Below are positions 6,716 through 63,809 of a stretch of DNA of 64,000 bases, piece by piece (within the stretch, counting starts at the first letter, position 1; the number at the start of each line of letters is the position of its first letter). A program made the translations under genes and the position numbers. A model generated the notes under the pieces. It was not told the origin of the DNA and searched no databases. It saw nothing but the letters and a program-made list of their open reading frames with translations. Where the stretch lies: positions 310,001-374,000 of the forward strand of contig CAJINV010000020.1 in NCBI GenBank assembly GCA_905178155.1. Direction: 5' to 3'. Origin of the DNA: Amoebophrya sp. A120 (lineage: Eukaryota > Protista > Dinoflagellata).

Positions 6716-7308
6716 ATGTCATCTACCTCTTCGTCCACTCCGTCCAGCTCGAAACCCGGTAATAAAGCGGAGTCCACGTCCGCCGGCCTGGCTCGCATGC
6801 AGCAGCGGCAGATGCTTCGGCAAAGAAAGGCCGTTGGGCTGCCGCCGCTGGAAGCGCAGAACGTGCACAGTCGGGTGCAGCACCTGTTTAAGGAGAAGGA
6901 GCCACCGCAACTGTCGCTGGGGGAGCGCGGGTGTTATCCTCAGCGGGAAATAAGTCCACACTGACTTTATTTATTTCGGAGGCACGCAGTACAATTTCAA
7001 TGTGCATTCTCTCCGTGGTGTGTTCGCACATTAGCAGTGACAGCAGCACAATCAAGCCATCTGCTTGTCCCATTTTTTTACAGCACAACCATTGCCAAAA
7101 CACGACTGCAACTGCCTTTCATGGGGATGCGCATAACAAATTTTGCTGTAGACGCAAAGATGCATGACAGCCCTGGAGTCGTGGGGACGTTTTTCTTCAG
7201 GATAGGCGTCTGGGTATCATCATCCTTTTGGCGGTCGTGCCTATGGTGTGGACGCCACCCTTTATGGTCGACCTCGCCCGCATGCTCGACCAAGCGGTGG
7301 CGAGATAG
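6716..7308 (+). CDS. Small single-pass membrane protein, 2 exons (intron 6931-7205)
   Basis: MSSTSSS...LSLGERG joined across a GT-AG intron gives RLGIIILLAVVPMVWTPPFMVDLARMLDQAVAR*, which has a hydrophobic helix. Confidence 0.65.
6935..7204. mobile_element. Introner (TIR element) forming a GT-AG intron
   Basis: TATCCT...AGGATA imperfect TIR; flanking 5-mers GGTGT/GGCGT; internal GCATGACA motif. Confidence 0.7.
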
Positions 7309-7755
7309 TCGTGTATCTAGAACGGGCGTGCGCTCCACGGCTCGGCGTCGCGATGAATCCAAATGTGTAGATTTTGCAATTGCGTCAGGTCGTGGCTTCA
7401 ACATGATAAGCCACAAAAAACAATGAATAAAATGAAAGCGGCAGAGAACAAAAAGTTGAACAACTATCTACGGAAGAGACTGCGCGTCATGATCATCTCA
7501 GCGCAGATTCAGTGCGGAAGAAGCACAACCACTCGGGGTGTCTGTTCCACCTCGCTACAGCAATTTAGTACGCATCTGCTGCGCCCGCATGAATCAATGC
7601 TTTGAAATGACGCTTATCTCCTGCACTGCTTGGTGAGAAGAGCGACATCAATCTGTCTCTTCTTCCCCCGTAACAATGAAGCGACTACTTTCTCTACCCG
7701 GTATCCATTTCTTTCCCTTTGTCCACACCGTTGTTTCTCGCATAAGAATATTACC

Positions 7756-11258: not shown

Positions 11259-12003
11259 ATGGGAAAACAAGCGAGCGCCGCGCCGGGCAAAGCTGCAATG
11301 AAAAAAAGCGCAGCAAAGCCGGTAGGGAAGGAGCGATTGAAAAGCAAAAAATCCTCGTCGTCCTCGAGCTCCGCACCAGCTCCGACGAAAACTGGTACAA
11401 ATGCCAGTAAAAACGCAGCTCGTACTACGTCTTCCGCGTCTAGTGCAAAAAAAGATCCAGCACAGAAAAATACTACTATCCCCGGCGCCGTGGGCAATCT
11501 GATCGAGGCAAAAATGCGGGAAATGGTCACCAAGCGCGGCGCCGAAAAAACGTGCTGACCCTCGGAGATTCCGCGAGCGCTGTTTGCAAGTTCGGACTGG
11601 CGCGGCCTGATGGCGCAGACCCGCGACATCGCGGTCCGGCTGGCGAAGCAGGGCGTGCTTATGGATTGCAAATATGTCTGGGTCTGGAAACTTGTGATGC
11701 AAGTCCGTGAACAATAAAGTGCTCTGTAATGCGCCGCCAAGCATGACAAGTTTTTTCGTAATTCTGTGCTGCGTATTTCGCACGAAAAACTGCGCTTTTG
11801 CATGACAGGCAAGAGGACCTCTTGGTGGCGACGCAATACAGAGTGCAGAGTCATGCTAGACTAGCATGACAACTCTCGCAATCTTCCAGACCCAGACATT
11901 TTTGCACTTGATAGTGCTGACGATTGAACAAAAGGGAAAGCAGATCACGGTGGGAAACGCGGAGGAGATCAAGGGACCGGTGCGATTGCGGTCGAAGGTG
12001 TAA
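11259..12003 (+). CDS. DUF3253-family protein with an in-frame UGA (putative selenocysteine), 2 exons
   Basis: Reading through TGA 11556-11558 and removing the introner gives KRGAEKTC-U-PSEIPRAL..DWRGLMAQTRDIAVRLAKQGVLTIEQKGKQ...IKGPVRLRSKV*, matching DUF3253 motifs TxCPSE, WRxLM, QKG and GPIRL. Confidence 0.85.
11660..11913. mobile_element. Introner family A (254 bp)
   Basis: About 30-bp TIR (TGCAAATATGTCTGGGTCTGGAA / TTCCAGACCCAGACATTTTTGCA); perfect 5-bp TSD GTGCT. Confidence 0.95.
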
Positions 12004-12121
12004 AACTTTCTTTCATTAAAGTACTTGCGCAAGACAAGTTTAGAATTCGAAATCCAACTCATCTCGCAGCCGATCGGTTGTTCATACGGAGGTCTAGTCA
12101 GAGTCAGCTTTTAGTGTGATG

Positions 12122-15218: not shown

Positions 15219-16610
15219 AGGTCAGAACTGTGGATGGATTTAGAATAAGGTGTATGCGTCTCTGTGAATTTCTCCTGTCCCCACTCTAGTAAGTACTACA
15301 CGCCCACCTACTTATACGACAGTGAATACCAAGATTACAACCACCTGCAGCACCACCCTTCTACGAGTATCAGCCCCTTTTATTTAGCACCATCGAAAAA
15401 AAGCCGCTTAGGATGTTTGACCTTTTGCAATTTTGAAAAGTCTCGGATAAGATAGATACACCCTTGTTTAATATTCTGTTTCGAACTGTAAAAATGTCGC
15501 AAGTGTACAGACCCGCAATGTGATGTGGAATCTATGCTGGCAACTTAAAATATAAAAAGTCTACCCCAGTAGTTGACGGCTCTGTGAATCTTGATCTTTG
15601 ATCGTAAGCCTGAATGACTGGCGGTGAAAACGAGCAAGAAAGATTCCCAAGAAACATTTTCCTAGGAAGTGTTTCCAGTTTTGAATTTTGGTTTGTTTCT
15701 GATTTAGTACCGAGCAATGATGCTAAAAGTTGAAAACAACAGCTTTATTGCCAATAACAATTAAGGACGGCACGAAAATGAGCAGAACTGGCACTGTAAT
15801 GCGTAAGCTGATAGCGGAGCTACGGATATCTGAACTAGGTGGTTTAAAGAACTTTCTTCAGCTTATGACTTTCCTGAAGTTTCGAGTTATTCAGCACACA
15901 CTGGTGTGAGTATGATTCTCTACGTATTGACTTCACTCAAAAACATACGTAGCAAATCGGTTCTTGCACAACTGTTGGTTTTTGCAGCGTCTGGGCGCAA
16001 CATCCAACAGAAAAGGGAAATCCGCCACTGCTGCTTCTTTCTGAAGAGGTATCCGTTGGACTGGAAAGTATTGAGTGCGCTAGTGGACAAATTCAGCATC
16101 GCCGGCCTTCGGAAACAAGGGAAGGACTGAACTAGCGCCACCCGAGCTTTTTTTTCGATGATCTCTTTACTCGTTTTCTTGGACACCAATATGATAATCC
16201 CACGCCCGTATGAGTTTTCAAATGACGCTGTCAATGTCAGTTTTGACCGAAAAAAATAAATTCCTGATAGAGATGAAAAAGGCCTGAAGCAACCACAAAA
16301 ATCGTGGAGCTACAGCGTGCTTCCGATACAGTAAGTAGACCACGGGTGCACCTGCTGAAGCCACTGCGTGCTCCCGCGTTCCCGCCTGTCTTTAACTTGC
16401 CGAGAGAGTAGCGAGGTCGTTCGTGTATCGCTCGTGCGAATGAATTTTTGAGAGTCTTGAGTGAACAAGTTCAAGTAGAGATGTTTGCTCATGGTTGTGT
16501 TCTTTTGTGGCGCATTTTACTGCATTTTAGTACAACGCTAAAGACTGCAGCATTACCATTACTCGCAAATTATTGGAAGCATCTCGACCGCGTCTCCACA
16601 CTCCAAAACC

Positions 16611-19114
16611 ATGCCTCCCTGCTTCCAGCAGAGCGACTTCGCCCGCATGACGGGAGCTGAGCTGGCCGCGGTCCTGGCCGGCCACGGCAAGTCGGTGGCG
16701 AACCCGCGGGCGAGCAAGCAGACACTGATCGAAAAGTTAGTCAAGATTGAGGAGGTCACGGAGCGCGGCCTGATGCACGACGCCATGACGCGAACCGGGT
16801 TGATGAACTTGCTGGAGGGGATGGGGAACCACTCCTCTTCGAATCAAGTGTTTTCCCGGGGCATGCTATGCAATACAAATTTCCCGTACATGTATGAAAT
16901 GCATGACAAATTTTGCTAGCTTAGAGTGTCCAAATTTTCATGCTGACTACGATTGAAGGCAAGTTTTGTCATGCAGAAACAGCATTCATACGTGTGCGGG
17001 AGATTTGGATTTCCTGTGGATACATGCTGGCGACGCGGGTCATCTCCACACTGAACAAGCGGGCCCGGCTATCCAAGAAAAAAAACGTTGTTAGTGTGAA
17101 TTTGTAATGCGCAAGAACATGCAAGATAATTACGTCTGTCATGCTTGGCATGGATTGTAGGGTCCAGTAAAGGGCGTTTTCACATCCTCTCTGCGCATGA
17201 CAGGTTTTTGCTGTCATGCCAGACAGATTTGTAATGCTGTTCCTCCAAAAAAGTTACACCTACAATGTTTTTTTCTTGGATACCGCCAGGAAGAAAAGAA
17301 AAAACTGGAAAAGCAAAAGGCAATCGAAAAAGCGAAAGTAAAGGAGCAAAAAGAAGCGGCAAAGGCGGAGGCGGCAGCGGCCAAAGTCGCGAAAGCGAAG
17401 GAGAAAGCGGAGAGGAAATTGGCGGGAAGTAGTAGCAAAGCGGTTCTTGTTGTTCCGGTGAATACGAAGATGACTGCGCAGCAGGCCGGCGCTCTTCCAA
17501 AAATTGCAGGGCCTGCCGCGAAGATAGTAAATCCGGACGATCCAATGCAGCAGCTGCGAAACCAACCCGCAGCGCCATCGCAGATGAATGCAGGATCTAG
17601 TTTATCTAAAGCTGATTCTAAGCCGAGCCGCGCTGTCCAACAACCTACTGTCGCTAGTAGAAGTGCAACTACTTCTGTGTCTGTTCTCGCTCCTGCTGTT
17701 GCTGCCTCGGCGAAAGACAGCGAAAGAACCGACCCGGCGTTGCGGTACCCGGGGTTGCCGAAGGACTGCAAGGATAAATTCCAAATCAACGTGTATTTTC
17801 GCGAAAAGTGGAGCAAGTATCCCTACGTGAAAGACGACTCGGTGAAATTCGTAACCGAAGCCGACACGCAGCTGGTCCGACACATCCCAGAACTCCAGTA
17901 CCAGACCGCGTTCCTCCCCTTGGAACACGAAATCAAAAAGGTGCGCAAGCAGTTGCAAGGGGGCACGCAGGAGGTGCTGATTCTTATTTGCGATCTTTTT
18001 TTTCGTTCGTCGGGCTTAGTTATTACGTTGCTCTATCTAAGCGAGATTTTGATGATTGTGCAGCATCGAAAAAAAAAAAATCCATCAGGTGCATACCGAG
18101 ATTATGAAGCGGCTCCACGATGTTGAAAATTTACCGGAAGCGGAGAAGAAGAAGTCCTGCGAGGGCTCCTTGGTCACTTCATGGGAAGATTTCTTCTACG
18201 GCGGCACCTCCATTTTTCATCTCACGGCGAATTCCTTCAAGGTGGTGTGGCACAACCACGGCGGCATTCTGTACTGTTGGTACCACCACAAAGCGCACCA
18301 ACAGTTCTGGTCGCAGTTCAGCATGAAGGAGCGGAAGCAGGAGTCGGACCTGGTCTGGCAACGGTGGATGGAGTTGTTCGAGAAGGAATTGTTCGTCCCC
18401 ATGGCGCAGAGACTGACCACGCATGTGCAAAAGTATTTGCAGAAGAAGCAGAAACTCGTGGCAACGGTGGACGCGCGGAAAAAACAGATCGAGCAGCAAA
18501 AAATGCTGTTGGAAGAGAAGCGGATCATGCAGGAAAAAATGGAGCAGAAAAAGCGGGAAGAGGAGAAACTTCTTGCCGCACGGATGTTGAAAAAGCAGGA
18601 AGAAGAATTGCTGTCAAAGAAAAAACAAGCCGAGCAATTACAATTAGAGGCGGAGCGCGAGAAGAACGCCACTACGGTCGAAGAACAACGGGGTGCGGAA
18701 ACTACGGGGCGGATGCAAGCTACAACTGGCGAAGGAGCCACCGCGAACGGCGGTGCTGCCGCGGAACTGAAGAGCGCCGCGGGAAAGAACAAGATGAAAC
18801 CGACTGAAGAAGAAGTGATCAATCTCGTGTCCTCTGATTCCAGTAAGTCGTCCTCCGTCGCCGTCGTCGTGGAAGTTGTCGATAAGAAAGTAGTGGAACA
18901 GCAAGCAGTTATCAACGAGAGCGCGACAGAGGTGCTCGATGATGCAAAGGCCGTCGTGGTATCAGGAACTGTCCCGGCGGTGTCGGACGGGGAATTGGTG
19001 AAAGGAAAAAGACCTGCCTCCGTAGGAGCCGTGCAGGAAGCAGAGTTTGTAGCCTCTGGGGAGCAGGACAGTTCGCTAAAAAAACGGAAGATTGAGGAAC
19101 TGGAACAGTTGTAA
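16611..19114 (+). CDS. Hypothetical coiled-coil, Lys/Glu-rich protein, 4 exons
   Basis: Frame continuous after removing introners 16867-17022 and 17070-17282 (SRGMLATRVISTLNKRARQEEKKK) and GT-AG intron 17974-18088. Confidence 0.75.
16867..17022. mobile_element. Introner (156 bp)
   Basis: TAT...ATA ends; TIR core CAAATTTCCCGTACATGTATGAA / TTCATACGTGTGCGGGAGATTTG; TSD CATGC. Confidence 0.85.
17070..17282. mobile_element. Introner family D (213 bp)
   Basis: TIR TATCCAAGAAAAAAA / TTTTTTCTTGGATA; TSD CCGGC/CCGCC; reverse-complement homologue at 59217-59425. Confidence 0.9.
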
Positions 19115-20222: not shown

Positions 20223-23161
20223 ATGGGAGGCTTCCGATTCTTGTCGCTGATTAAGCCCGTCATGGTGCTGCTGCCGGAGGTGGCGCAGCCGGACCGACGG
20301 ATCCCGTTTAAGGAAAAGCTGCTGTGGACCTCGATTTCCCTCTTCGTTTTCCTGGTGTGCTCACAAATACCGCTGTACGGAATCATGTCCTCCAAGCTGA
20401 GCGATCCCCTCTACTGGATGCGAGTACTATACTTACGACTGTTTGATGTTGCAACAGTGTGTTTGGAGCTATTTCTCGCGTCGTGCTTTGGTTAGTACCT
20501 ACGGTGTCTCACGCAAGAGCTGCAACAGCACGTCCACGTGCACGGCGCCGCGCGCGGAGGTGTTGCAGCAGTACCATAATATGTACGCGCGAGAAGCAAC
20601 GAAAAGGGGATGGACAAAATGTCCTCGTCGCACCGATGTACTGTGGTTTCAAAACGTGAAAATAAACCCAACTGTAATATAGGTACTTATGGCTTCAAAC
20701 CGTGGGTCTTTGATGGAGCTGGGTATTTCGCCGATCGTGACTTCCTCTATGGTGATGCAGTTGCTCGCGGGTTCAAAAATTATTGACGTGGACCAGACCC
20801 TCCGCGAGGACCGAAATTTGTTCAACGGCGCACAGAAATTGTTCGCTCTGCTGATCACCTTCGGAGAAGCAACAGCGTACTGATTTACTACTGTTTTTTT
20901 GCCTGCTTCAAAACCAACAAATGTTATGTACGTGCTGCTTTATTATTATTTTCCGGTATGTACAACGGGGCTGCGTCTGCGTTCCACGTGAAAAATGAAT
21001 TCCAAATAATCAGATACGTGCTTTCTGGGATGTACGGGGATGTCCGCGAGCTTGGTGGTGGCAACTCCATTCTGATCATCATCCAGCTTTTCTTCGCCGG
21101 CGTCGTGGTGCTTCTGCTGGACGAGCTTTTGCAAAAGGGCTACGGTCTGGGCAGCGGAATTTCGCTCTTTATTGCAACCAACATTTGCGAGGCGATTGTG
21201 TGGAAAACCTTCTCCCCGACAACCATCAACACCGGAAAGGGAACCGAGTTCGAAGGTAGGGGTTATGTGGATAAATTGGGTTTTCTTTGGCTTGCAGAAA
21301 TAAAACAAAGAGTGGCGTGCTACGTCTATCTTCGATCATGCAAGAACGGGGGTTCCTTCCGGGCATCGTGCTGTTGATTGAAAATGTCTTCAGGTAGGAA
21401 ACGATTGTTCTCTACAACTATTACTATCAGGTGCTATCGTTGCGCTGTTCCACCTGGTTTTTTCGAGGTCCGACAAATTCCAGGCAGTCAGGGAAGCCTT
21501 CTACCGACAGTCTGCACCAAATCTGACCAACGTGTTTGCAACCGTTCTGGTCTTCCTGATTGTCATTTACTTCCAAGGTAAGCACACGGAAAATCTTCTT
21601 TCTTGAAAAAGAAATCGAATGCGGATGTCGAAAAATGTGTCATGCAGACCTCCGATGGTATTTTCTCTTTGTGTAGCACCAAATAAGCGCATGACAAATA
21701 AATGCACTAGCCCGTACAACGACCACTACAGGCTTCCGCGTCGATCTCGCGGTGAAGTACCAGAAGGTGCGCGGACAGCAGGGCAGCTACCCGATTAAGT
21801 TGTTCTACACGTCCAACATTCCAATCATCCTGCAAACCGCTTTGGTCTCCAACCTGTACTTCTTCTCCCAGCTGCTGTACCGCCGATGGAAGAGCAACAT
21901 GCTGGTATAGTGAAGTGTGCATGACATATCGGATACTTTGTTGACGGTTTTGAATCACAAATATGCAGCATTAGACCACACGGAGATGAAACGGAACAGT
22001 CAAAATTATGCTCTGCATGGTAGTGTTCCGCATGAGAAACCTGTTTTGCTTTACTGTTTGTGCATGACAAAACAACAGGTCAACCTCCTCGGACAGTGGC
22101 AGGACCTGGACTACGGCGGTCAGTCTATCCCGGTCGGAGGCCTCGCTTACTACATCTCCCCGCCTAACAGCTTCTCCGACATCTGGGTACTACAAACTTT
22201 TTTTCTGTGCATGATCACCAGCCGGTCCGTGCATGGCAGATGTACTATGAGCTTTCCAGTGTAGAAGTTCATTGCATGACAAACACGCAAGCACCGCATT
22301 TCTGTTTAGCATGACAAACGCGCCGCAAGACCATTTGGCTACTTCCTATACATCCTACAAATTCATCACCGCCGGTCAATTACATAAAAAAACAGGTCGA
22401 TCCCATCCACGCTCTGTTCTACATCTCCTTCGTGCTGTGCAGTTGCGCTCTGTTCTCTAAGACCTGGATCGAGATCTCCGGCAGCATATGCATTGCAAAT
22501 ATGTCTGGGTCCGGAACAAGCTTGTGATGCTAAAGTATGGATGAGGCTTGTGCTTTCAAGTACAGCCGAGCATGACAAAATTACTTGACACCGTCTGTTG
22601 CTATGTAGCACGCATCACAAACTGCGTCTTTGCAAAAGTAAACGCTTTTGCTGGCTAGGCAACACAGATTTGTCACAGGAATGCTAGACATGCAACACAA
22701 GTTCTTGCACTGTTCCAGACACAGACGTGTTTGCATTCGATACAGCAGCCCCCGTGACGTCGCCAAACAGCTCCGCGACCAGCAGCTCTTGTTTAAGGGG
22801 TACAGGGAAACCAGTCTTATCAGCGTGCTGAACCAGGTAAGGATTTTTTTTCCTGTGGTTGGCGCATCGGAATTTTCTATCTGGGGTAACATCAGATGCA
22901 AAAACTTTCCTTTTTCATCTTGTTATGCCTGTTGCGCTGTAAATTTACATGTTCAACATCACTCCCCACACCGAAAATTCTAAACAGTACATCCCGACCG
23001 CGGCTGCCTTCGGTGGTATGTGCATTGGTATGCTGACCGTGGTGGCGGACTTCTTGGGCGCGATTGGCTCCGGGACCGGTATCCTGCTCGCGGTCACCAT
23101 TGTGTACAACTACTTTGAGCTCGTCTACAAGGAAAAGGAACAGGGCAACTTGCTGTTCTAA
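20223..23161 (+). CDS. SEC61A: Protein translocon subunit Sec61 alpha, 9 exons
   Basis: [86 protein letters not shown]; introns 20424-20682, 20877-21013, 21256-21430, 21578-21731, 21905-22078, 22187-22395, an introner at 22487, and 22837-22987. Confidence 0.98.
20428..20681. mobile_element. Degenerate introner forming GT-AG intron 1 of Sec61 alpha
   Basis: 254 bp; TATACTTAC...GTAATATA ends; flanking 5-mers AGTAC/GGTAC. Confidence 0.55.
22487..22742. mobile_element. Introner family A in Sec61 alpha (non-canonical intron)
   Basis: TIR ..TGCAAATATGTCTGGGTCCGGAACA / TGTTCCAGACACAGACGTGTTTGCA..; TSD CAGCA; removal restores the conserved [13 protein letters not shown]. Confidence 0.95.
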
Positions 23162-24177: not shown

Positions 24178-24241
24178 CCCGTGCTCTTTCCTGAAGAATT
24201 TCGCACTCCCTCCCAAGAAAATTTTATCGCGCGTCTTCGCT
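24178..24241. repeat. About 64-bp dispersed direct repeat, copy 1
   Basis: Near-identical to 26250-26312. Confidence 0.85.
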
Positions 24242-24695: not shown

Positions 24696-25918
24696 ATGTC
24701 TTCGCGCGCCGTGCATTTCTGGATGGTGGCCGCCGCAGTCTCCTTGAAGCTGCGCAAAGACGCCCCCGGAGCTGTCCGTGGAGGTGAAGTTGCACACGGA
24801 CCAGGCGACAGTAGCGGTATGACCCCGGTGAGGTCGCCGGATGTGACCTATGCTCCGTCTGCGGTTGGCGCTGGTACCTACTCTGAGGCCGGATCCGTCG
24901 CTGCAAGCTCTGCGGATCGGGCCGCCAGCATGATCAGTTCGCTGATGGCCAACTCGGGGGCAGCCGGGTCTTCTACGCCGGAAGCGTCCGTTGCAGGGTC
25001 GGCTGGCGACGCTGCGAACGACGACCGGATCAAGGACATTGAACGGGACCTGATTGCTGGCGCAGATATCACAGACAAAAATGCCTGCCGGAACAACAGG
25101 TTGTCATGTAAAAAATCAACAAAAGATTCCAAATCATGCATTCGCTCCACCGACCACACTTTACTCTGCAGCACCGAACGTATTGCATGAAAGATTGTGA
25201 ACTGTGGTGGCACTTTTGCCTGTGATATTGCAGGCCTTCGACAAATCCGCTAGCGTCGGAGAAACACCGGAGCAGCGGGAGTTGCACAATGCGGTGAAAG
25301 CGGCTCTGGTCAGCTCGCCGACGAAGCTCGGGTCCTATCCGGTTGCAGGTGCGAGTGCGGGCGCAGCTTCCTTTCTTGGCGTAGTGCACGGCAAGTTGTC
25401 CCTAACCAAAATGGCTAGCATCGCAACCAGCGTGGCCAAAGCTGCAGAAGCCCACGTCGTGTCGGGAAGAGCCAATGCGCAGTGCGACCAGTGTATCATC
25501 GGAAGAAAAAAATGTTGTCTTGAAACGGGAAGGAATGTATGCTGCGTTGCTGGGTTCGCGACCCAGAAGTGCATTCTTTTTCTTCGCGAAACGAAACAAA
25601 TGGTGAAAAATAAAGGGCTGTTAGTACTTACCATAACGAAGTTTCCATAGGTGCATGGCAAAACCAAAATATCCATAGATGCATGGCAAAAAATGCTGTT
25701 TCAAAATACAACAAATTTTTTTCAACCCGATACCGTCCTGCCAGCCGAACTTCAGCACGTGTCCGCAAGGGTGGGAATCTCGCCGGGACGGCTCCTGCAC
25801 GCACCCTTCCAGCTACACGGGCTATTGCAACAAGCCGCTGCGCCCGGCAGACTTCGCTGCCGCGGCGCTTGAGGAGTTTGAGGTCTACTGCAGCGCGTGC
25901 TTTCCCTGCTCAGCTTGA
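24696..25918 (+). CDS. CPW-WPC domain protein, 3 exons
   Basis: C-terminal CQPNFSTCPQGW...SCTHPSSYTGYC...FEVYCSACFPC; possible signal peptide; two TIR-bounded introns. Confidence 0.8.
25066..25228. mobile_element. TIR element within intron 1 of the CPW-WPC gene (likely GC-AG intron about 25062-25233)
   Basis: 20-bp TIR ATATCACAGACAAAAATGCC / GGCACTTTTGCCTGTGATAT. Confidence 0.75.
25494..25732. mobile_element. Introner (239 bp)
   Basis: TATC...GATA ends; TIR AAAAAAATGTTGTCTTGAAAC / GTTTCAAAATACAACAAATTTTTTT; degenerate TSD CAGTG/CCGTC; frame restored (CDPSCQP). Confidence 0.75.
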
Positions 25919-36399: not shown

Positions 36400-38655
36400 A
36401 TGTACCTGGTTTCGTTTTTCTGCGCTATCCTCCTGATCGGGATCTGTGTCCCGAAATGGTCCTCCGAGACGGAGTCGAAATACAGCGGGGACCGCGACAT
36501 TCGCTTATCAAATGCAAAAATGTCTGGGTCTGGAAGAATGCAACTTGTAATGCGTATTTCAGAACACGGAAAAGTCTGTCATGCATACGTAGCAGAAGCT
36601 CCCACTTTTTGTCGGCAAAATAGGGGACTTGTCATGCGGATTCGGCATTGCAGAAGGTTCTCGAAACCTGTGCTGCTAGAGCTTCCATGCCAGACCTTCT
36701 GTGTCATGCAAAAACAGCATGACTCTTCCAGACCCAGACATTTTTACATTTGATATCGCTACATGATCTGTCATTCGACCTGCCTTTTTGCCGGCGAGGT
36801 GTTCGAGAAGGAAGCGATGCGAAACCAGACCGCCAGCACGTTGCAACGAAACCACCACTTTCGGGAGCTTTTCAGCACCGTGCGCAGTTACGCGTTGGCC
36901 CCGCCGTTGAAGAAGAAACAGAACTACTCGGTTTCCACCCACCCGCCGCAAGCGCCGACCTTCGTGCGGTCCCAAGTGGAACACGCGCGGCACCGGGGAA
37001 CCCACGATTTGCGGGGCACGGCGGCGCGGTTCGGCAACCAATTATACTTCCAGCTGCGGGAAAATTGGAACACGAAAAGCACGGAGAACGCTGTTACAAT
37101 CGACGCCGAACGGCTGAAAACGGGGCAACTGCGGGATAACAAGGCGGAGATGCTGATGGTAACGGGGATGCGGGCGGCGGCGGATTTCGTGCAGAAAAAT
37201 ACTTTGGACGAAATTCGGAAGAGCAGCTTATTCATGTTCGAAGCTCTGGGGATCAGCAAAAGCACGTGGAAGGATTATAACGAAGACGCTGGTCCCTGGT
37301 CCGTTCGGCGGGAACTAGGGAAGAAACTTTTGTATCTTTTCGATTTCTTCCTCAACTTGTTTGGCGACTTCGAGCATTTGCTACCCTTCACGCTGCAGGA
37401 GGAGTGCGCGTACCGGTGCAGCCAGGACAATGTGGACACGCGGAAAAAGGGGAATGAGGTTCTGGTCCAGTACTACGGCAAGTGGGGCTTCAAGCGTCTG
37501 TACGGGGCGCAGGAATTTTTTGCGGCATTGTTCTCGTTGTTGAACTTTTTCCTTCACCCGGTGTATTTCTGGTCGAGTTTACGGAAGATAAAGGAAATCA
37601 TACGGGTTACAAGCAGGATAAACAGTGGAGATAGCGAAACTATTAACACTTTTGCACACAACAAGAACACCTCTCGCGCTTTCCAAAAGGCGAGAACTTC
37701 CCTGCTTGGCCACCACACACTCGTCGCGGGCTTCGGGTTCTTTAGCTCGCTTTCCTGGGCCGCGAGCTGTTTATTTCACGCACGGGATCGGGATTTCACG
37801 ATGATGCTGGACTACGTGTTTGTGCAGTGGATGGGCGGGTGGGCGCTGCTATCCGGTTTAATGTACCGAAGCGTGGACGAGCAATGGGGTTTGACGTTCA
37901 AAGCCTTCCTGAAAACGACCACGTTCTACTTTTGTCTCATCTTCGCAGGCATCCTCGCCCACCAGACGCAGGTAATCTTCCAGTCGAGCAGACCCGATAC
38001 CGGAAAGCACATGGTGTTTTGCGTGGGGTTGGCGTCGTCGGGGACCTTAGCGTACTTGAGCGCTTTACTGCGGAAAAACTGTCGGAGCGCGGTGTCGAAA
38101 GTCGTGCAGGGTGACTTGATGACCTGTTGTCGAGGACGTCGCGGGAATAACGAGGAGGAGAACTACAGCGTTGAAGCGGAATCTTCTTTGTCGGGGAGGG
38201 ATGAAAGAAAGTCAGCTCCGGGTGGCGAGGAGCCTAGTCCGAAAAAAGAAGACAAGATTGTCACCTCCTCGACACCAGCTCCAGCGTCGACCTCAGAGGG
38301 CAAGAAACTGCAAGAGTCGACGGCAAGCACGGCGACAACGCCCTCCCTTCTCGCCCAGCTCCAGGCCTATTGGGTTTCCTCTCCGGAATTCTTTCTCGCG
38401 ATTGCGGGGGCGTACCCGCTGTTCCTCTGTTTGGAGCTTGCCGACTTCCCGCCGTACGAAGATTTACTGGACGCGCACGCGCTGTGGCACTTGGGCAGTG
38501 TACCCATTCAATTTGGCTGGTACAAATGGTTTTCGAAAGCGGAAGAACTGGTGTTCCTGCCGGAATTTCTGAAGCAAAGCGGTGCTGCTCAGCAAGCAAA
38601 ACTGCGAAAAGACTGCCCAGAAGATAATGGAGTAGACCGTGCGAAGCAGGAGTAG
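36400..38655 (+). CDS. PGAP3: Per1/PGAP3 GPI lipid-remodelling phospholipase A2-like protein, 2 exons
   Basis: SGDRDIRYMIC..C; ECAYRC; QYYGKWGFKRLYGAQEFFAALFSLLN; FHARD..T..LDY; LELADFPP..LLDAHALWHLG. Confidence 0.93.
36506..36755. mobile_element. Introner family A (250 bp)
   Basis: Near-perfect TIR TATCAAATGCAAAAATGTCTGGGTCTGGAAGA; TSD TCGCT. Confidence 0.95.
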
Positions 38656-43763: not shown

Positions 43764-46700
43764 ATGAAATCATTGGCACCGCCAACGATGTCGGTGATTT
43801 TTCCCTGGTCCTCCGACCGGGTCACACTTGATGTCCTCCGGTTGTTCATCGCCCTCCACACCGCTCTCTACTTCTTCCCCACTCTCGTCAAAGCGAGGAC
43901 CTTCCCGGATCGGTCGCAAAGCACGAGCGGGCGGGAGTTTCTCCTTCCCCCGGGGGCCGGGGTCCCGTTCGTCGAGAGCCAGAACCCCTTGGCGCGGACC
44001 GCGTTACCCTGGAACGAGGGGACGTACATGTCCCGGTACGTATGCAGCGACTTTTTGTCACCTGGCCGTGCCGTGGAAACTGAAAGTGTCGCTGAGCAGG
44101 CGCAGGCCTGCGGGCTCCTGCTGGCCAGAAACTTTACGGTGAAGGTTCATGAGAACAATGTAGATCGTGCTCCCGCCTCTGCTCCTGCAAGCAACGATGT
44201 TCAACATCTGGATGAAGTAAAAAAAGCTGTTCTAGGAAGGTCAAGTACCGGCTGGACTCGATCCCTTTCGGACGACAGCACCGCGCCTTCAGAAGTAGAA
44301 CAGCACGTGGGTCGCGACGTCTTCGCAAGCGATAACTCTGGCGGTGCTCCTGGTGGAGCATCCTCGTCTTCGCAGAACAACCCTAAAGCAGAATTGTTTT
44401 CATCTTCACTGCAAGAAGTCGTGCAAAAACAAGCAACAGCCTCCGAGAACAAATATCACCTCGATGATCTCGACTTCTACGCCGCCGCAAGCCAGCATGA
44501 TGCTGCAACTATGAGAAACACCTCTGACGACTTTGACTGCTGTTGGGCGAATGAAGTACTGGATCGCGCTCGAGCTACTCTTGGAGATGGGTATAGAAAT
44601 CACGATCCTTTATTTCAGAGTGATGTTTGCAGGAACGTCACGCGAGAGGGGGACCTACATCTGTCGCGGGGATTTGACACGGACCCCAACGTCGATGTAG
44701 TTCAGAGCCTGTTATGCTCCCAGTGGAAGCAGGTGCAGCGGTACTGCGTGGACCATTATGGGGAAGATTTGGACCTGGACAGCATCAAATGCAAAAATGT
44801 CTGGGTCTGGAACAAAGCAACTTGTCATGCTAATAGTCTGAATCATGTAAAAATTTGTGTTGCATGATTACCAAAAGCTGTCCACTTTTGACCTAATCGA
44901 GAGGCAGCTTCTCATGCAGGATTGGCATGAGAGAACTCTCACAGAATCTATCATGCTATGTCCTACATACCAGACCTCATGGGTCATGGAAAACCTGCAT
45001 GACAAGTCTGGCACTCTTCCAGACCCAGACACTTTGACATTTGATAGGGTCCGATGGCAGTGCCGCGGAGGAAAAGGAGCAGTATCAAAAGGAAAAATCC
45101 CCCCTCCCCATATCAGAAGGAAGTTTCTGATGCTGGATTTGCGTAGACAAATCAGCTTTGTATTGCAGAGAGGCACTGCGGGCAGATCTCCGGGCTAGAT
45201 AGGGGCGTATGTGTCTAGTTGTTCAGCATGGCAAACGGCTGCCCTTTAGGCCCAACAGCATGACAGATCGCCTCTATAATGGGGCGGAAGCTCGTCCGGT
45301 GGGGAGCTACCTCCCCACCTCCCCCCAGCACTGGGGAGGTACCTCCCCACCCTAGGAAGGCACCTCCCCACACATGGGGAGGCACCTCCCCAGGGTGGGG
45401 AGGTGGGGAGGTGATACGTGGGGAGGTGATTCACACCATAACCAAAAGTATCGTACTCGTAGTAATTGCAGTCATGCATGACAAGTCTGGTTCCTCAGCT
45501 TATTCAGCATTACAAATTCCATTTTTCCTTCTGGAAAAATTTGTAATGCTATTTTTACTAGTGGTGTTCAACGTCGTGTTCGAGCATACTATAACCACTG
45601 CGTGGACCATTATGGGGAAGATTCATCAAATGCAAATATGTGGTCTGGGCCGGGAAGATTGCAACTTGTGATGCTGCATTTAGATTCCAAAAAAATCTGT
45701 ATTGCATGAGCAGCAAAGGGAGTGCAATTTTTGCTACGCGGAGAGGGCATTTGTCATGTGGAATAGGCATCAAGAAGCCCTCAAAAAATCTGTGACGCTA
45801 GGGCATGCGTCACAGACTTCATGGCTCATGCAAAACGTGCATCAGAATCTTCCAGACCCAGACATATTTGCAATGCATAAGATTTGAACCTGGACAACAT
45901 CAACGCGAGCAGTGACGAGCACCCCGGGAAGCAAGAGGTCGCAGGGTCGGGTGTCGGTGCTGATGTGAAGAGGTTCTCCATTTTCACTCCGAGAACGAAT
46001 TATTCTACTTCGGGAACAGCTGCTGCGGTTGTTCACGAAAAAGACGGAGCAGCGTCGCAAGAAGGGTGTACAGTAGAACCACCAGGAGAACCGAATTCTA
46101 GCAACTACTCGGATCATCATCATCATCATCATCGTCCTGCTGGTTTTCAGTACAGACCTTTTAGCACCACGAAAACCACGGAAGATCCAGACGGGCGAAA
46201 TCGCCCACCTTTGCTGTCTTCAACAGATGAGCTCGACAAGACGTGTTCATCTAAAAGCTCGTGCAATCTTCGGGAAACTCCGGAACTCCAGCTTTCTTCC
46301 GCTAGCACGGCGTCCACGTTGAGCAGTAGCTCAAGAAACAACTACAACTCGCTATTCACGGGGGCCAATCATTACGTTGAGCCGCCGATACTAGTAGCAC
46401 GAGGGAAGGCGCAAGCGCATGAAGACACAACTCTAGGAGGGTTGTCCCCATTAGCCCTGCCGCCGAGAGGAGGAAGCGCGACGCCCGCTGCGATTATTTC
46501 GGTGCCACATTTCCGTCTGGACGACGTAGACGACGAAGACGATGAGGATGATGTCAGCCAGGCAGATTCCTGCGACACCATCACCTTTATGCTCGACCGA
46601 GAAGAGGACGGAGAACCACTGTGCGATGAGGAGGCGCAGCGCGACGTGTCAAGAAGTGCTGATAACCTCAGAACTTCTCAGATGCGCATGCGTCACATGG

Positions 46701-56514: not shown

Positions 56515-56955
56515 TTACATAGCGGGAAAGGAGCAGCTGTCATCAAGTGCTGGAGGAAAGCTATATTGCGAAATTCCTGTTTGCTTCAGTTTCGCTTGTG
56601 TATAGACGGAATCGACTCCTTACTTTGCAATGTCATGTAGGATAATTGACTGACGGCGACCGGAATGAGCCGACCAAGACGTCGAAGCTTCACGTCAATC
56701 GTTTCTTACACTTGTGTGCGTCGTGAGCACATCATACGGTGAGGTGTTCAGCGTTGGACAAAATCCGGTAGGATACTAAAGATCTTTCTCAGTCAGAGAA
56801 GCTCCTGATGCGATAGCAGTAATTCTACGAAGATCATGATCTTCGAGGTTTTTTTTCCTAAGGTCCACACGAAGATCCGCAGTTGAGAGATACTTTAGTA
56901 GGCCCGGATATGAATTGTTCTTCCTGTTGTTCTCGAAATAAAAAGTCGAAACAAG

Positions 56956-59900
56956 ATGCTCTACAAGAGGCGTTCTTCACCTTACTCTCTCCGTCCACCG
57001 TTCTGTTGCGTTGCGGTCTCGCTGCTGCACACGTGGTCCCGGGGGCGCCCGGGCGTCGTGCCGATACGGGCGGACTACGGTTCTGATGAGTTGAAGGAGT
57101 CCCTGTTTTTCGCGGAAGACAATGAAGGGTCCTTCAATCCCTACGACCTCCCGCGCACCGACCACGATAGGGAAGACGATGTGGGGGAGGAGGAGAGACC
57201 ACATGATCCACCAGACGAGGTTCTACCAGAGGAAGCCGAACAGCCTGAGACGGAGCCACCGCCTAACAATACCTCAGCTGAAGAGGAGGAACTCACCGTG
57301 GTCCTGCCGGACGGCGAAACGAGCGGAATAGAGGGCGACGGACCACATGAGCAAGAACATCCCGCATCGTCAAACACTGTCGACGACTACCAGCCTGCGG
57401 GTGACGACTACTTGTCCCAACTGGTCGAGCCGATAAATTCCAGAAGAAACCAAGAGGACTTGTCCGAAGAGTCGGAAAACTGCGCCGAGAACGACGACGA
57501 GCAGGTCTTCCGGCAGTATTTATTGCATTTCTACGAGTCCAACTACTGGGGCGCGCAGCAGTCGATTTTGTTTCACAAAATCCGCGGGTCGCACGCGCTG
57601 CACTGTCCCTCCGCGGTGCTGGGGACCATGTTGTTGAAGATGGAATCCTCCGTGTTCCGCCACGACGCGGACGAGGTGATCCCGGACCAGAAGGGGCTGT
57701 ACGCGACGTATCAAGTGCAAAAGTACTTACTTATCGTACTGGTACTAATCGCTGTCAGGCATGACAGATCTAGTTCTCTACGGGATTTCGCATCACAAAT
57801 TCCATTTTTCCTTCTGAGAAAAATTGTGATGCAATTTTCACTAGTGCGAAGATGTTTTTGCGATGCATACGACGTACTTCCACGACAACCTGTCCCGGAT
57901 CAACAGAAACTGGCCGCTGGCTATCATACAGAAAAAAGCAGGCAGGGCGTATTTGTGATGCATACAATGAATTGACCATAGCGTGCTGTTAAGGCTACGC
58001 AATACAGATTTTTCTGCGTGTTCGTGTATGTTTTTGCATTACAAATATAGCCACCTGCTGGCTTTTTTGTGCGGGATACTGGCGGAGGGCTACCAGCGGG
58101 TGCTGGATTTAGAAGAGGCGTTGGTCGAGAAAAAGGAGTACAGCATCGCGATGATCATGAACTTCTGCTCCGTCAAGGACCGGTTCGGCGAGGCGCACGG
58201 GCTGGATTGGCTCGCGGAAGGCAGCGACATGCTGGAGGAGGACCCGGATCTGCTAAGGATAGGTATCGACTTCTGTCGTTGTCCTGCATTTTCATTTTGC
58301 TAGCTCGTCTGTGCATGAGAGGTAGAGGCCGCTGTAAAAACTACTGTGATCAATATGGGTTGATGTCTGTAGATCAGGAGAAAACAACTTCTCAGTAGTA
58401 GTTTTCACCACTAAACACTCTCAGTTGACGTCCACATCTACATCGTCGACCTGCCCAAGTGCAATGGACAGCGCTCGCACTTCGCTCACATCGAGCGGGT
58501 CGTCAAGTCGCTCACCGTCGAGCGCTACCAGGGGGCGCCAGACCGCGAGGAGCAGAGCTCGTACTTTCGCTACATTGTCGACCACTACGACGATATGGCG
58601 GATTTCGTCATCTTCGTTCACCCAGACGCGCCGGAGCACCAGGGAAAGGAGATGCGCGCCTTGGTCGAGGCACTGCGGTTGCTGAAAACCAAGTCGGCAC
58701 TGGTAAAATTTTTGGATAGATTTTAGTTGTTTTGCGAATGGAAATCTTCAGAGGTGCAGCAGTTTCCTCTCGGACATGATAGGGAATAAAACCATGCAGC
58801 TCAAATTATTTTTGTGTGAGCGCGCCAAGAACTCGTCTGCTGGTCATTGGTCGCACTATCTGGTTCTGATCACGACCGTTGGCAAATCGACTGCAACACC
58901 CTCCAAACGATGATCGCGACCACCTCCTGCAGGCGTATCGCACCATAGAGTACTACCCGCTGGCCATGCAGTACATTCGCAGCCCTCTTTATGGAATGCG
59001 AGGAGTTCATTTGAGTCTTTCTCCTTGCAGCTGATGTGTACAAAAATTTAAAGTTCATTGTCTTGTTGTAAGTATTGCCCCCGAGGAGCAGTTTTCTGGG
59101 AGCGAAACGGTGAAAACGCAAGCAGGGCATGGTAATAGATAACTTTTTAACCTGTTCTAGCATGAGGAAGGTTCAAGAAATTTCCATGCTCCATACTTTC
59201 CGCACCTCTCGGTCCCTATCCAAGAAAAAAATATTGTAGGTGTAAGTTTTTTGGAGGAACAGCATTACAAATTTGTCTGGCATGACAGCAAAAAGCTGTC
59301 ATGCGCAGATAGTACGTGAAAACGCCCCCTGATGGACCCTGCGATGCATGCCAAGCATGACAGACGCAATCATCTTGCATGTTGAGCATCACAAATTTAC
59401 ACTAACAGCGTTCTTTTCTTGGATAGTCCCGGGCCATTCACTACTACGACGCGGGGGACCGCGAAGACGACTGGCCGGTATCAAGTGCAAAAATGTCTTT
59501 GTCTGGAAGGGTTGGAACTTGTGATGCAAACTCTGGAACACGCAAAAATTTGTGTTGCATGAGCGCCAAAAGCTGTCCATTTCTTGGCACGCAAGTAGGA
59601 AGTTTCTCATGCGGGACAGGCATCATGAGGCGTGCTCAAAATAACCTGTGATGCTTTTGCCTGCATCAGACGCCATTTGCGTGATCCGAAATATGCAAGA
59701 CAAATCTCGCAATCTTCCAGACCCAGACATTTTGCATTTGATAGACGGTGTTCTGGAACAAATTGTTCCTCGACCGGCCCAATGGCGTTTGCCCCCTCGG
59801 GTGCCGCTGGAACGACGAGATGGACCACGATTTTACCTTTTACATCTATCAAATGCAAAAATGTCCCGGTCTGGAAGAGTGCAACTTGTGATGCTGAATT

Positions 59901-60362
59901 TGGATTCTACAAAAATCTAGGCTGCGTGAACAGCAAAAGAGGTCCAGTTTGTGCCACGGCGAGGTGGCATTTCTCATGCGGTGTAGGCATCAGGAAGCCC
60001 TCACAAAATCTGTGATGCTAGAGCATGCGTCACAGACTTCAGGAGTCATGCAAAGTGTGCACGACAAACCTGGGCCTGGCATCCTTCCAGCCCCAGACAT
60101 TTTTGCATTTGATAACATCGCCAGCCAAGCGATCGTCCGTTCGGACCGGATCCGGATTCACCCACGAGAGTGGTACGGGAGCTTCTTCCAGCAAGATTTG
60201 ATCTGGTTTTCGAACAATTCCGGGCTGCTGGAGGCGGCCTGGCCCGTGATCATGGGGGAGGAACTGACAGAAGTGTCGCGGGAAGCGGATGCGCGGTTGC
60301 CGCTGGCACTGAAGTTTGACATCTTGACGAAATACAGCTACGGCTGGAACGACGTGATCTAG
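56956..60362 (+). CDS. DUF3431-family protein, isoform using 3' module 1
   Basis: REEQSSYFRYIVDHYDDMADFVIFVH; ASQAIVRSDRIRIHPREWY; SGLLEAAWPVIMGE; frame restored across 5 introners and other introns. Confidence 0.8.
57709..57869. mobile_element. Introner family B (161 bp)
   Basis: TATCAAGTGCAAAAG...TTTTTGCGATGCATA; TSD CGACG. Confidence 0.9.
57922..58078. mobile_element. Introner (157 bp)
   Basis: TIR TATCATACAGAAAAAAGCAGGCAGG / CCTGCTGGCTTTTTTGTGCGGGATA; TSD CTGGC. Confidence 0.88.
59217..59425. mobile_element. Introner family D (209 bp)
   Basis: TATCCAAGAAAA / TTTTCTTGGATA; TSD GTCCC. Confidence 0.92.
59479..59743. mobile_element. Introner family A (265 bp)
   Basis: TIR; TSD GCCGG/GACGG. 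Confidence 0.9.
59847..60114. mobile_element. Introner family A (268 bp)
   Basis: TIR; TSD ACATC; the empty site in paralogous module 2 has a single ACATC. Confidence 0.95.
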
Positions 60363-60720
60363 AGGTTGAAGATGTGCTGGACGTACTGGCAATACAACCG
60401 CACGACGTCGAGACATGCTCAGCTGCTGAATCGATCACGATCTTCAGGCCTTTAGTGTAGTACTGACCTCCATGCGTCCTGGTGTCTTCGCTTCGACCCC
60501 GGGAGTAAGTAGTAAACAAACCCACGCGCCCACCGTGGAGGTGCCGGCGGAGTTCGACATACAGAGCCCGAGGACTACGAGCATCTTCAGACCGAGTTCC
60601 GAAAGAGGCGAAGTATGCGGAGAGCTGCGTGAAACTACACAGAAGTTGCGTGCTTTCATACCGCTGTAGAAGCAAGAAGTAGTGCACCTGACGAATCTTC
60701 GAATCGATCCTACACTACAG

Positions 60721-61562
60721 GCCTACAACTCCATCGAGTACTACCCGCTGGCCCTGCAGTACATCCGCGAACCGCTGTATTCGGGGAAAATTTTGCTGAA
60801 TCGAGAGAAGCAAAGTCGACGTGTTGCATGGTAATTGTACTTCATTGTGCGCAGAATTGCTGACTAAATTGATCGTGTGCGAGACGAGGTCTAACATACG
60901 CTGCAGGACGACTATGCTATCCCTTGATTCTTTACTTTTCCCCTTTCGTGGTCTATACGTTCCGCACCCGGCGCAGTCTGGAGCACATCAAGGAGCACAA
61001 TGACGAGCACGACTACTGGGGTGACTTTTGGAAGCGGCTCGTGAGCCGGCCCAACGGGCTGTGCCCCTTCGGCTGCGACTGGAATCACGAAATGGACGAA
61101 TCCTTCACCTTCTACATCGCCAGCCAAGCCGTCGTGCGCAAGGACCGCATTCTCCGGCACCCGCAGGACTGGTACCGCGGGTTTTTGCATTTGAGCGAGG
61201 AGGAAGAAGCTCGCGGGGATTCCCTGACCGAGCACCTCCGCTGGCTCAGCAACAATTCGGGGTTGCTGGAGGCCGCGTGGTATCCTGTGCAAAAGTATCG
61301 TACTCGTAGTAATTATTGGAAATATGCATGACAAATCTTCTTGCTAAGGTAAAACAGCATTACATACAAATTCCATTTCTAATCTTGAGGCAATTTGTAT
61401 TGCGATTTATACTAGTGCGATACTTTTGCAATGCAGACGTGGCCGGCGATTTTGGGCGAGCCTCTGACGGAGCCGACGCGGGACGAGGACCCGAGGTTGC
61501 CGCTGTCACTGAAGCTGTCTATTACGACAAGGTATTCCGACGGACAGGCCGGGGTGATATGA
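60721..61562 (+). CDS. Second, paralogous 3' module of the DUF3431 gene (alternative terminal exons or partial duplicate)
   Basis: AYNSIEYYPLALQYIREPL..RPNGLCPFGCDWNHEM..ASQAVVRKDRILRHPQDWY..LLEAAWPAILGE..; starts at a phase-0 CAG acceptor. Confidence 0.8.
61281..61437. mobile_element. Introner family B (157 bp)
   Basis: TGCAAAAGTATCG / CGATACTTTTGCA TIR; TSD CGTGG. Confidence 0.9.
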
Positions 61563-62139
61563 GCGGGAATTAGGCCATTTCTTTATTCCTTCGTTCTTGA
61601 TGTAGCATTTTTGAGCTCTAGTATTCTTGCTGCGACTTCCTGTGTAAGTAAGTAGTAGTTTGATGCGCGGCCGCCGTATTTGACGCATCGCAAAAATGTG
61701 CGGCGTTTCTTGCAACTGATTCCAACGCGAACGCAAACGCACTGACACCTTGATGTAGTTGTCGACTTCATCAAATTGCGGGGCTTGTCGTGATAGGACC
61801 AGAAGCACGACGTCGTCGGAAAGAAATACTGTCCGGCCGAGTCAGTTCTTGTGTTTCCTTTGAGAATGACATAAAGCGGCACTTGCTACGAGAGAGATAC
61901 TGTTGCAAGCGGGAGACGCGCCTTTGATGCATGTGAGCGACGCGGAGGGTAACATAAGGTGTGCTGCCTGCTGGCTGTGTATACTTCCTGCATAGAAGTT
62001 ACAATCAGGGCTGCAGCAGCACGAGCAGCCTAATTATCAAAACCACTTGCTTGTAGATAAGAAAAAGGGACGAGGAAGGCGGCCGTTTGGCCGGCAAGAA
62101 TTTTTCTCGACCAACCGCCTGCTGCATCACTGAAAAATT

Positions 62140-63809
62140 ATGACGACGGCGCTGGTATCCAGCATGATTTCGGACGAGATTTCTTTCGCCATCGCGGCGG
62201 GAATCGGGGTCTGCACGCTCGCCTATCTTCACATGCGGATGACCGGGGGGATGAAAAATCAGGACAAGAAGAATCATGTCGATGCGGCGCAAGAACCTGT
62301 ATTGCTGCAGGACGAGGAGCGGCGGGCGGAGCAGCATGCGAATCTTCCTTCTGCGAGGAAAACTACCACGACGAACAAGAACCCTGAAAGAAGATCTTCG
62401 TGGTTCAGTGACAATGTCATGGAGCAAAGAAATTCATTTAGTAAGGGCGATGCAAGTAGTTCTTGCAGCAATGCCGATGCTCGGGGCTGCACTGAGACCA
62501 AATCTCGCCTCAGTGCCTTTTTCTCATTTTCCGGAGAAAGTGCTTCTACCACATCACACGTTTCGACGGCGAGCGAAAAGACACCAACGACTTCCACGAG
62601 TGCGGCGACGAGCAAGGAATCAGTGGGAGGTGGAACAACTACAGCATCCGAGCAGGATCCTCCACTGGATATTAAACCACGGTGGACCAGTTTTTTCTCC
62701 GCAGCACCCGCTTCCGGTTGTACTTCTAGTTCTATGAAGATCGCAACCTCCTCCCGACGTCCGGAAGAACTACAACACAATGACGTCGATTGCGGCGCCA
62801 GCACGTTTTCGGAGCAAACCGAAGACGACGAGGATTCGGACGAAAGTGTAGCTTCCAGCACGCTCCTCTACTCCACAGGCGGGAATAAAGCCAGCCATTT
62901 ACTCTTACCCGATCTCGGGTTTCGGCTCGAAGTCGGCGAACTATCAACTGCAAATATGTCTGGGTCTGGGAGATTGCGAGATTTGTCATGCTAGTCTGGC
63001 ATGACTCTGGGATTTGTATTGCGTGGCAACCAAGAGCTCCTCTAGCCTGTCATGCAAACACGCAATTTCTCATGCGGAATACGCAACAAAGAAGCATGAA
63101 AAAACTTGTGATGCATGGCGGCGCATTACAGTGTCCTTATTATTCAGTGACCTGCATCACACTTTCCAGACCCAGACATTTTTGCATTTGATACGAACAC
63201 CAAATGTACCACGGTAGGATGCAGTTCACGGTCCGCCTGCTCGAGTGGCGCGACAAGAGCCCGAACGAGCAAGTCACTCTCGCAAAAGCCACCCGTTCCT
63301 ATTCCCAGTTCAAAAAGCTGCACAAAACGACCAACAGCAAGCAGCACACGCCGTTTCTGCGCCGCCTGCTGTTCTCGTCCCACGTCAGCAAGGTGCAGCA
63401 GCGGACGGAGTGCCTGCAAAAGTTCTGCGCAAGGTTGCGGGTGTCAGACCGGAATCTGAAGCTGCTGGCGGCGTTCTTGGCTTTGCGGAGTGGAAGTGAG
63501 GAAGAGACGCGGCTCCTCGAAGCGTTCGCGAAGCAAGCGGGTGCGGAAGAATTTTTCTGCTTTGCTGTTCATCTTTCAGGATGTCTTTATTGTCTTGCTC
63601 TTGCGGAAGTTCTGGGTTGTAGTCTTTGTCCTGTCCACGTGGCCTGGACTATTGCTGCACCTCCCCTGCGCATTTTGCTTCTGAAAGTGTACTCCTTTGC
63701 TGTCGTCCACTGCCGCATCATGAAGAAAGCAAGAATGTCCTCGGCGTCACACATACTTACGTGCTTACTTGCTAGTGCATCTGTGTTCGTTGCTCTAGCT
63801 CGCGGCTAG
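62140..63809 (+). CDS. N-terminally anchored protein with a PX-like domain; 3' end uncertain
   Basis: TM segment ISFAIAAGIGVCTLAYL; after introner removal EVGEHQMYHGRMQFTV..TRSYSQFKKLHK..VQQRTECLQKFC..LLAAFL. Confidence 0.65.
62942..63193. mobile_element. Introner family A (252 bp), inverted relative to the copy at 11660
   Basis: TIR; TSD CGAAC. Confidence 0.95.

Follow-up and report, generated by a model that had tools for sequence, protein, structure and literature searches.

Introners of Amoebophrya sp. A120 (Dinoflagellata) have been described as elements of about 240 nt with non-canonical ends, which begin with TAT followed by seven variable bases and at least three A, lie between direct repeats of 3-5 nt and carry no internal transposase; one figure (Fig. 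S19) gives an example with a 5-bp repeat (Farhat 2021, PMC7789003). A later survey describes one A120 family, family 38, as Ginger-like with a '5-bp TSD, TA/TA Termini' (TSD, target-site duplication), a statement that covers a single family of five copies; of the 58 A120 rows, 41 were covered, and the other 40 of these name no superfamily and give automated TSD calls of 2-6 bp (Gozashti 2025, PMC12130899). Here we analyse such elements, and how they leave the RNA, in 64,000 nt of A120 contig CAJINV010000020.1 (assembly GCA_905178155.1, positions 310,001 to 374,000, forward strand), which we call the window and number from its first letter.

Because both papers report its architecture, a system of inverted-repeat introners with these ends is already known. 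An earlier reading of the window, made from the letters without database searches (the sequence-only reading), had noted that introners are known in Amoebophrya, which is correct and understated, since TAT starts and 5-bp repeats were already in print. The elements in the window share with the A120 introners of Farhat 2021 the TAT inverted repeats, the direct repeats, the non-canonical ends and the lack of an internal transposase. They depart from that description, with its 3-5 nt repeats and variable positions, in that the repeat is 5 bp in every large family and the informative junctions share one register, although Table S4 of that paper and its wording on the position of the repeat partly anticipate that register. 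The family 38 element of Gozashti 2025 was not seen in the present sequence. Our contribution is therefore a probable fixed register and a specific branch-point prediction, the elements themselves being known.

Three more distant systems are instructive. The nonconventional introns of Euglena (Nomura 2025, PMC12501133) are also inverted-repeat introns, probably derived from miniature inverted-repeat transposable elements (MITEs), cut at spacers fixed from a terminal stem, of which the 3' spacer exceeds the 5' one by 2-3 nt, an arrangement that our elements would share under the register proposed below. Their motif is CDG...CH'G where ours is TAT...ATA, the accessible text describes no uniform 5-bp duplication, and a purine exon start is required there, whereas three of our five RNA-confirmed exons would start with C; the full motif N3-CDG...CH'G-N5-6 is absent from the elements studied here. 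Introns of Fritillaria borealis (PMC11282704) are likewise MITE-derived, with terminal inverted repeats (TIRs) and TSDs, and are removed by an adapted U2 spliceosome, but they mostly end in AG-AC or AG-AT, as dictated by the target sequence, which is arbitrary in our case. The Ginger2/TDD elements (Bao 2010, PMC2836005) resemble ours as DNA transposons with TIRs and integrase-like enzymes, TDD-4 and TDD-5 making 5-bp duplications; they differ in having TGTNR ends rather than TAT and mostly 4-bp duplications, and no integrase was found here.

Our analysis leads us to a tentative reading, to which we give a little less than even weight: the elements are non-coding inverted-repeat introners between 5-bp target duplications, precisely removed from RNA, likely in one register and likely by an altered major spliceosome.

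Results

The window is gene-dense eukaryotic DNA with its genes on the + strand; it gave no Rfam match, and the only named homologue of one of its exons comes from Amoebophrya sp. A25 (63% identity). A strict scan for the pattern TSD5-TAT...ATA-TSD5 at a spacing of 60-800 nt returned 18 matches against 9.5 +/- 3.4 in 30 shuffles, and 8 against 0.9 when an arm identity of at least 10/20 was also required. Strict and relaxed scans, reading, and RNA joints (which supplied 25067) together gave 16 full-length elements of 156-270 nt, within coding exons, which we name by their first position. Both TAT and ATA ends are present in 14, the exceptions being 45624 with a CAT start and 61281 with an AGA end. 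The copies of the duplication are unequal in five elements, with one mismatch in 6935, 17070 and 59479, two in 25494 and four in 25067, and are exact in the other eleven (11660, 16867, 22487, 36506, 45624, 57709, 57922, 59217, 59847, 61281 and 62942), which are those for which the sequence-only reading had named a duplication; its claim of shared ends, TIRs and a 5-bp duplication holds to this extent. Its count of about 17 was fair, because a seventeenth element (44783-45046, without a duplication) and three fragments form part of a patchwork at 44783-45623. Grouped by blastn, the 17 elements fall into families of eight, two and two plus five singletons, in both insertion orientations, and end positions 1-3 and 11-13 are common to the families, which agrees with the earlier description of several sequence families with one end design.

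Within the elements an internal 8-nt motif is found at 11.6 per kb, against 4.4 in eight confirmed canonical introns and 0.15 elsewhere, a density about 75 times that of the remaining window. Stop codons interrupt nearly all frames of every element. For three sites the window itself holds an empty counterpart, in a tandem paralogue or a duplicated exon, and at two of these a single identical copy of the 5-mer is found. The elements are short, with TIRs, a constant TSD, many copies and no open reading frame (ORF), as MITEs are, and the TAT-N7-A-run ends, direct repeats, removal without GT-AG and families without internal transposase are those of A120-type introners. They are present in DNA and very numerous: in a DNA run the summed depth is about 7e5 on an element end and about 45 on single-copy sequence, figures that do not give a copy number, and one contig of DNA run X7 crosses 45856-59267, elements included, identical to the window.

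The same design extends to a related organism, for which a 30-nt end repeat retrieved 128 loci (531 kb) from metagenome contigs. Among the 168 elements of family A in these loci the 5-bp duplication is exact in 144, with one 4-bp and no 6-bp case, and the ends are TAT in 163 and ATA in 162. Calls made blind to the TSD gave an exact 5-bp duplication in 243 of 329, again with one of 4 bp and none of 6 bp, where shuffles yielded about 3 calls; by large family, without selecting for the duplication, it is exact in 139/170, 36/54, 22/32, 22/28 and 5/7. The end pattern had no match in viral contigs.

Contigs of three probable RNA runs (X1-X3; two samples of one study, the RNA label being a tool's guess) were aligned over 16400-26100. 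The RNA contigs skip all five elements in this interval (5 of the 16), each time by the element length plus 5 nt, and none of the five junctions has GT-AG or GC-AG ends, so that canonical U2 ends are not found; the same contigs skip eight GT-AG introns, seven of whose confirmed donors begin GTA. The sequence-only reading had proposed junction mapping of this kind, and in it every covered element proved to be precisely removed, with neither retention nor imprecise canonical splicing in sight. It had also held that removal restores conserved protein in Sec61 alpha; RNA removes 261 nt there, and the exons flanking the element align to residues 356-385 and 386-411, which are contiguous in a solved Sec61 alpha. 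The sequence-only reading further stated that most elements have no possible GT-AG pair. Precise removal would be possible in two of the 16, with GT-AG at 6935 and with GC-AG at 61281, and eight have no GT/GC-AG option; the remaining six hold only an in-frame GT/GC-AG pair within 15 nt, which would alter the protein. Near two of the five RNA-covered elements lies an in-frame GC-AG option that is unused. The interval 44001-64000 gave no splice test, since raw RNA runs X10 and X11 held element pieces only (96 and 3 reads) and repeats of the DNA run hid 682 joints; run X9, which has no joints and covers intron sequence, was left out as RNA.

Two observations concern the same transcripts. One X1 contig spans 16533-24181, that is, an upstream gene and Sec61 alpha; read-through could account for it, and a single transcript is not demonstrated. 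The canonical Sec61 introns at 21578-21731, 21905-22078 and 22187-22395 contain the internal element motif twice each, the one at 21905 beginning GTAT, and judging by sequence these three introns may be old elements turned canonical.

Where the two repeats are identical the cut cannot be placed, and therefore it is the elements with unequal repeats that place it. The mRNA keeps four or five bases of the left copy at 17070 and at 25067, and two, three or four at 25494. Because only four fits all three junctions, the intron probably reads N-TAT...ATA-NNNN, its ends lying in a fixed register 1 nt ahead of TAT and 4 nt beyond ATA. The mRNA would then, with similar confidence, retain the first four positions of the left duplication and the fifth of the right one, by which the original exon would be restored at any site and in either orientation. 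The duplication is not what guides the cut, because at 25067 four of the five repeat bases differ, yet the removal is again element plus 5 nt. In the related loci a conserved residue falls in the left copy at positions 3-4 in ETF beta, at position 2 in ALA dehydratase and at position 1 in a kinase; these examples were chosen by eye from 45 non-synonymous cases, the rest not being judgeable. The elements of the window are as follows.

6935..7204, + strand: element, singleton family; flanks GGTGT/GGCGT; precise removal also possible at a GT-AG pair; no homologue found for the exon upstream
11660..11913, + strand: element, family A; exact TSD GTGCT; inverted relative to 62942
16867..17022, + strand: element, singleton; exact TSD CATGC; RNA removes 161 nt
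17070..17282, + strand: element, family C; flanks CCGGC/CCGCC; RNA retains 4 nt or more from the left copy; hairpin z=-5.5
22487..22742, + strand: element, family A, in Sec61 alpha; exact TSD CAGCA; the 261-nt removal; no GT/GC-AG option; hairpin z=-4.0
25067..25227, + strand: element with the duplication nearly lost; flanks GCAGA/TTGCA; in RNA (one sample) the element plus 5 nt is removed and 4 nt or more of the left flank remain; hairpin z=-2.3
25494..25732, + strand: element, singleton; flanks CAGTG/CCGTC; 2-4 nt from the left copy and position 5 from the right one are retained in RNA; hairpin z=-2.4
36506..36755, + strand: element, family A; exact TSD TCGCT; upstream of a Per1-like ORF
44783..45623, + strand: patchwork of a family-A element (44783-45046, CAT start, no TSD), fragments of other families and a partial duplicate of the upstream exon
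45624..45879, + strand: element, family A; CAT start; exact TSD AGATT; duplicated exon 44743-44788 is an empty site with one copy
57709..57869, + strand: element, family B; exact TSD CGACG
57922..58078, + strand: element, singleton; exact TSD CTGGC
59217..59425, + strand: element, family C; exact TSD GTCCC; inverted relative to 17070
59479..59743, + strand: element, family A; flanks GCCGG/GACGG; left copy matched at position 2 by 2/2 homologues
59847..60114, + strand: element, family A; exact TSD ACATC; tandem paralogue near 61115 is an empty site with one copy
61281..61437, + strand: element, family B; AGA end; exact TSD CGTGG; missing from the paralogous exon near 60235
62942..63193, + strand: element, family A; exact TSD CGAAC

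What machinery could make such a cut? We compared end mutations in transcript orientation over 303 elements of 61 related loci, the gene strand being inferred. Changes in the 5' TAT number 0, 1 and 10 at positions 1, 2 and 3, and those in the 3' arm 5, 3 and 0 (Fisher p=1.2e-4), while the contig-strand control gives 4/1/3 and 1/3/7, with no such pattern. Under the fixed register the spared bases are +2T and +3A of the intron, which match the GTA of seven of the eight canonical donors, and the A at -7, which is unchanged in 303/303 oriented elements. A further apparent strand skew, at arm position 10, did not survive when the cut-off for the strand was tightened. Short fixed distances from branch point to intron end are known in Yarrowia, Trichomonas and Giardia. 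In those systems the active A of the branch motif directly precedes its final C, which places this A at -6 to -8. We favour an altered major spliceosome because of these three things, the skew that spares +2T, +3A and the -7 A, the GTA of the canonical donors, and the known short branch distances. Of the spliceosomal small nuclear RNAs (snRNAs) of A120, U1 is reported missing and U2, U4, U5 and U6 present, and the minor ones are reported absent (Farhat 2021, PMC7789003). A U12-type reading, with its extended TATCCTT donor, was dropped; TATCCT stands at only 41/329 5' ends and 47/329 3' ends and so shows no strand preference.

In the step that we propose, at somewhat under even confidence, N-TA would be read as a donor like the GTA donors of the host, its first base being free to vary; the branch point would be the A at -7, which opens the terminal ATA, and the 3' cut would be set by distance from -7 rather than by AG. 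The A at -7 is accordingly named as a candidate for lariat sequencing, a prediction that we hold about as loosely, or slightly more so. The stronger statement, that the major spliceosome has dropped both terminal dinucleotides in favour of an N-TA donor, a branch at the first A of the terminal ATA and a cut fixed 6 nt further, we regard as possible but rather doubtful.

Discussion

Several observations weigh against the reading that we prefer. The register comes from three junctions of one study, its upper limit from 25494 alone, and 25067 from one sample. Published splice types agree with it on one side: in Table S4 of Farhat 2021 (PMC7789003) the nine top A120 types all have N-T starts, but eight of the nine have A-N ends, which the register does not predict and which point to aligner effects or a second register; the same paper calls the splice positions variable. 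A codon-likelihood test for the exonic copy was null (26/53, p=0.93) and no clear drift to G was seen at +1 (8 vs 3); neither the direction of mutation nor codon likelihood nor drift to GT or AG revealed which of the two repeat copies belongs to the exon. At right position 4, C is in excess (10 vs 1), which we do not claim as a result because it is one of 20 comparisons. On the side of the spliceosome, the gene strand was inferred, by two estimates that agree in 316/370, the strand skew was noticed after other tests and has p=0.14 in the strictest subset (204 elements), 45624 starts CAT after T, which a +2T rule disallows (it lies in the patchwork), and beyond the A the elements hold no conserved branch motif. 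Our literature searches, with most subscription papers outside their coverage, returned no statement of a fixed register or branch position for these introns; Fig. 3 and S19-S25 of Farhat 2021 may show the register.

The same elements and the same register could instead be served by a distinct machinery of the Euglena type, which takes its measure from the terminal stem and makes no lariat. We consider this unlikely, though it is the most serious of the alternatives for removal. The elements fold into long hairpins (z from -2.3 to -5.5 in 4/4 folded), they occur in both orientations, and excised euglenid introns are published as circles. The one register that fits all three informative junctions would moreover pair +4 with -7, just as the Euglena code does in its form with a 6-nt spacer. 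No selection on this pairing is seen, however: pairing is poor at arm positions 4-7 (Watson-Crick in 139-248 of 342), and there is no sign of selection on an RNA stem, because G-U pairs on the transcript strand are not preferred over A-C pairs in the arms (213 vs 260). The Euglena motif and purine exon start fail here, as described above, and the skew spares the donor-like +2 and +3. It is less probable still that no single register exists and that cuts fall at several places in the duplication, including canonical GT-AG where available. Variable positions in Farhat 2021 (PMC7789003) would suit this, as would its Table S4, which favours N-T starts and A-N ends alike, and 6935 could be removed at GT-AG at register 1. 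Yet the three informative junctions all rule out registers 0 and 1 and share 4, and the residue checks in ETF beta, ALA dehydratase and 59479 also rule out register 1.

Hairpins between direct repeats promote template switching by reverse transcriptase. Both features are present in these elements, and the RNA label of X1-X3 is a guess, so that the skipped form could in principle be a template switch at the repeats, or reflect elements excised from DNA. We think this very improbable. A switch at repeats does not sit well with 25067, which has one matching base and the same removal length, nor with the eight GT-AG introns skipped by the same contigs; Sec61 needs real removal, because the elements carry stops in nearly all frames; and the X7 contig, which retains the elements unchanged, speaks against excision from DNA.

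How the elements move is a separate matter. The sequence-only reading had them all mobilised by one transposase type, none encoded in the window. The latter is borne out in the 17 window ORFs. The former is plausible, a single kind of mobilising protein fitting the elements because the 5-bp duplication is uniform per family and the ends and internal motif are shared, but no transposase was found and the claim stays at that level. On balance we would expect one kind of integrase or transposase, encoded elsewhere, to recognise the TAT-N7-AAA end and to make a 5-nt staggered cut. Against it counts the absence of a transposase from the 155 ORFs scanned (the 17 of the window and 138 of 161 long ORFs of the related loci); nor was a gypsy-integrase-like transposase found in the available sequence. 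It is a good deal less likely that the families were moved by several unrelated transposases, or via RNA by reverse splicing, even though the scanned ORFs are consistent with this, Farhat 2021 (PMC7789003) detected no transposase in A120 and argued against transposases as the general means of mobilisation there, and Gozashti 2025 (PMC12130899) placed A120 introners in several transposable-element classes. What speaks for one DNA-level integration chemistry is the uniform duplication across families, the shared end spacing and internal motif, the two orientations, and derivatives that carry cargo and keep ends and duplications.

Some long elements of the related loci deserve mention here. Family-A elements with foreign inserts, their ends and duplications intact, lie in L040 (765-1461), L013 (3862-4492), L012 (571-1051) and L059 (2262-2660); the inserts of L013 and L059 look alike by eye, and the arrangement resembles cargo capture by DNA transposons. 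L032 holds at 476-2934 a 2459-bp element with family-A ends, an exact 5-bp duplication and a 362-amino-acid ORF on the minus strand. No Pfam family was found in its four ORFs, the ORF matches only itself among 1.84 billion representatives, with no atlas hit, and the interior has no second copy in the related loci. It was considered as an autonomous copy, which is not demonstrated, the ORF being an orphan without family, relative or second copy.

Elsewhere in the window, the patchwork region 44783-45904 contains, besides a duplicate of exon 44743-44788, an exact 37-nt copy of exon 39746-39782, which belongs to another gene. If three introns are removed at the fixed register, one reading yields an open frame with the captured piece in its source frame, and three other readings do not; gap-repair capture or misassembly could explain the region. 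Tandem paralogues of one gene family at 56956-61560, whose A25 homologue carries PF11913, differ in their insertions and so provide empty sites within the window. A 1416-codon intron-free ORF with ABC transporter domains (52309-56514) is free of elements, in contrast to its neighbours. At 32611-34306, a multi-exon gene whose canonical introns are repeated also contains repeats about 100 nt long that are 75-79% identical. Three copies of a GC-rich unit some 230 nt apart at 4546-5120, with no Rfam match at gathering score, are possibly an array of small RNA genes, and an exact 212-nt duplicate at 790-1846, flanking a 633-nt N gap, is probably a scaffolding overlap.

The removal of introns without GT-AG in Amoebophrya, which concerns tens of thousands of introns, has been an open question since 2021, in part because the true cut is masked by the direct repeats. 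Where the repeats are unequal it comes to light, and with a named candidate branch base the choice between lariat and circle becomes a directly testable question. If the stronger form of our reading is true, symmetric transposon ends together with a 5-bp duplication would turn any exonic insertion, in either orientation, instantly into a perfect intron. A transposon end and a spliceosome matched in this way would make insertions into exons nearly cost-free, and would thus open a route to mass intron gain.

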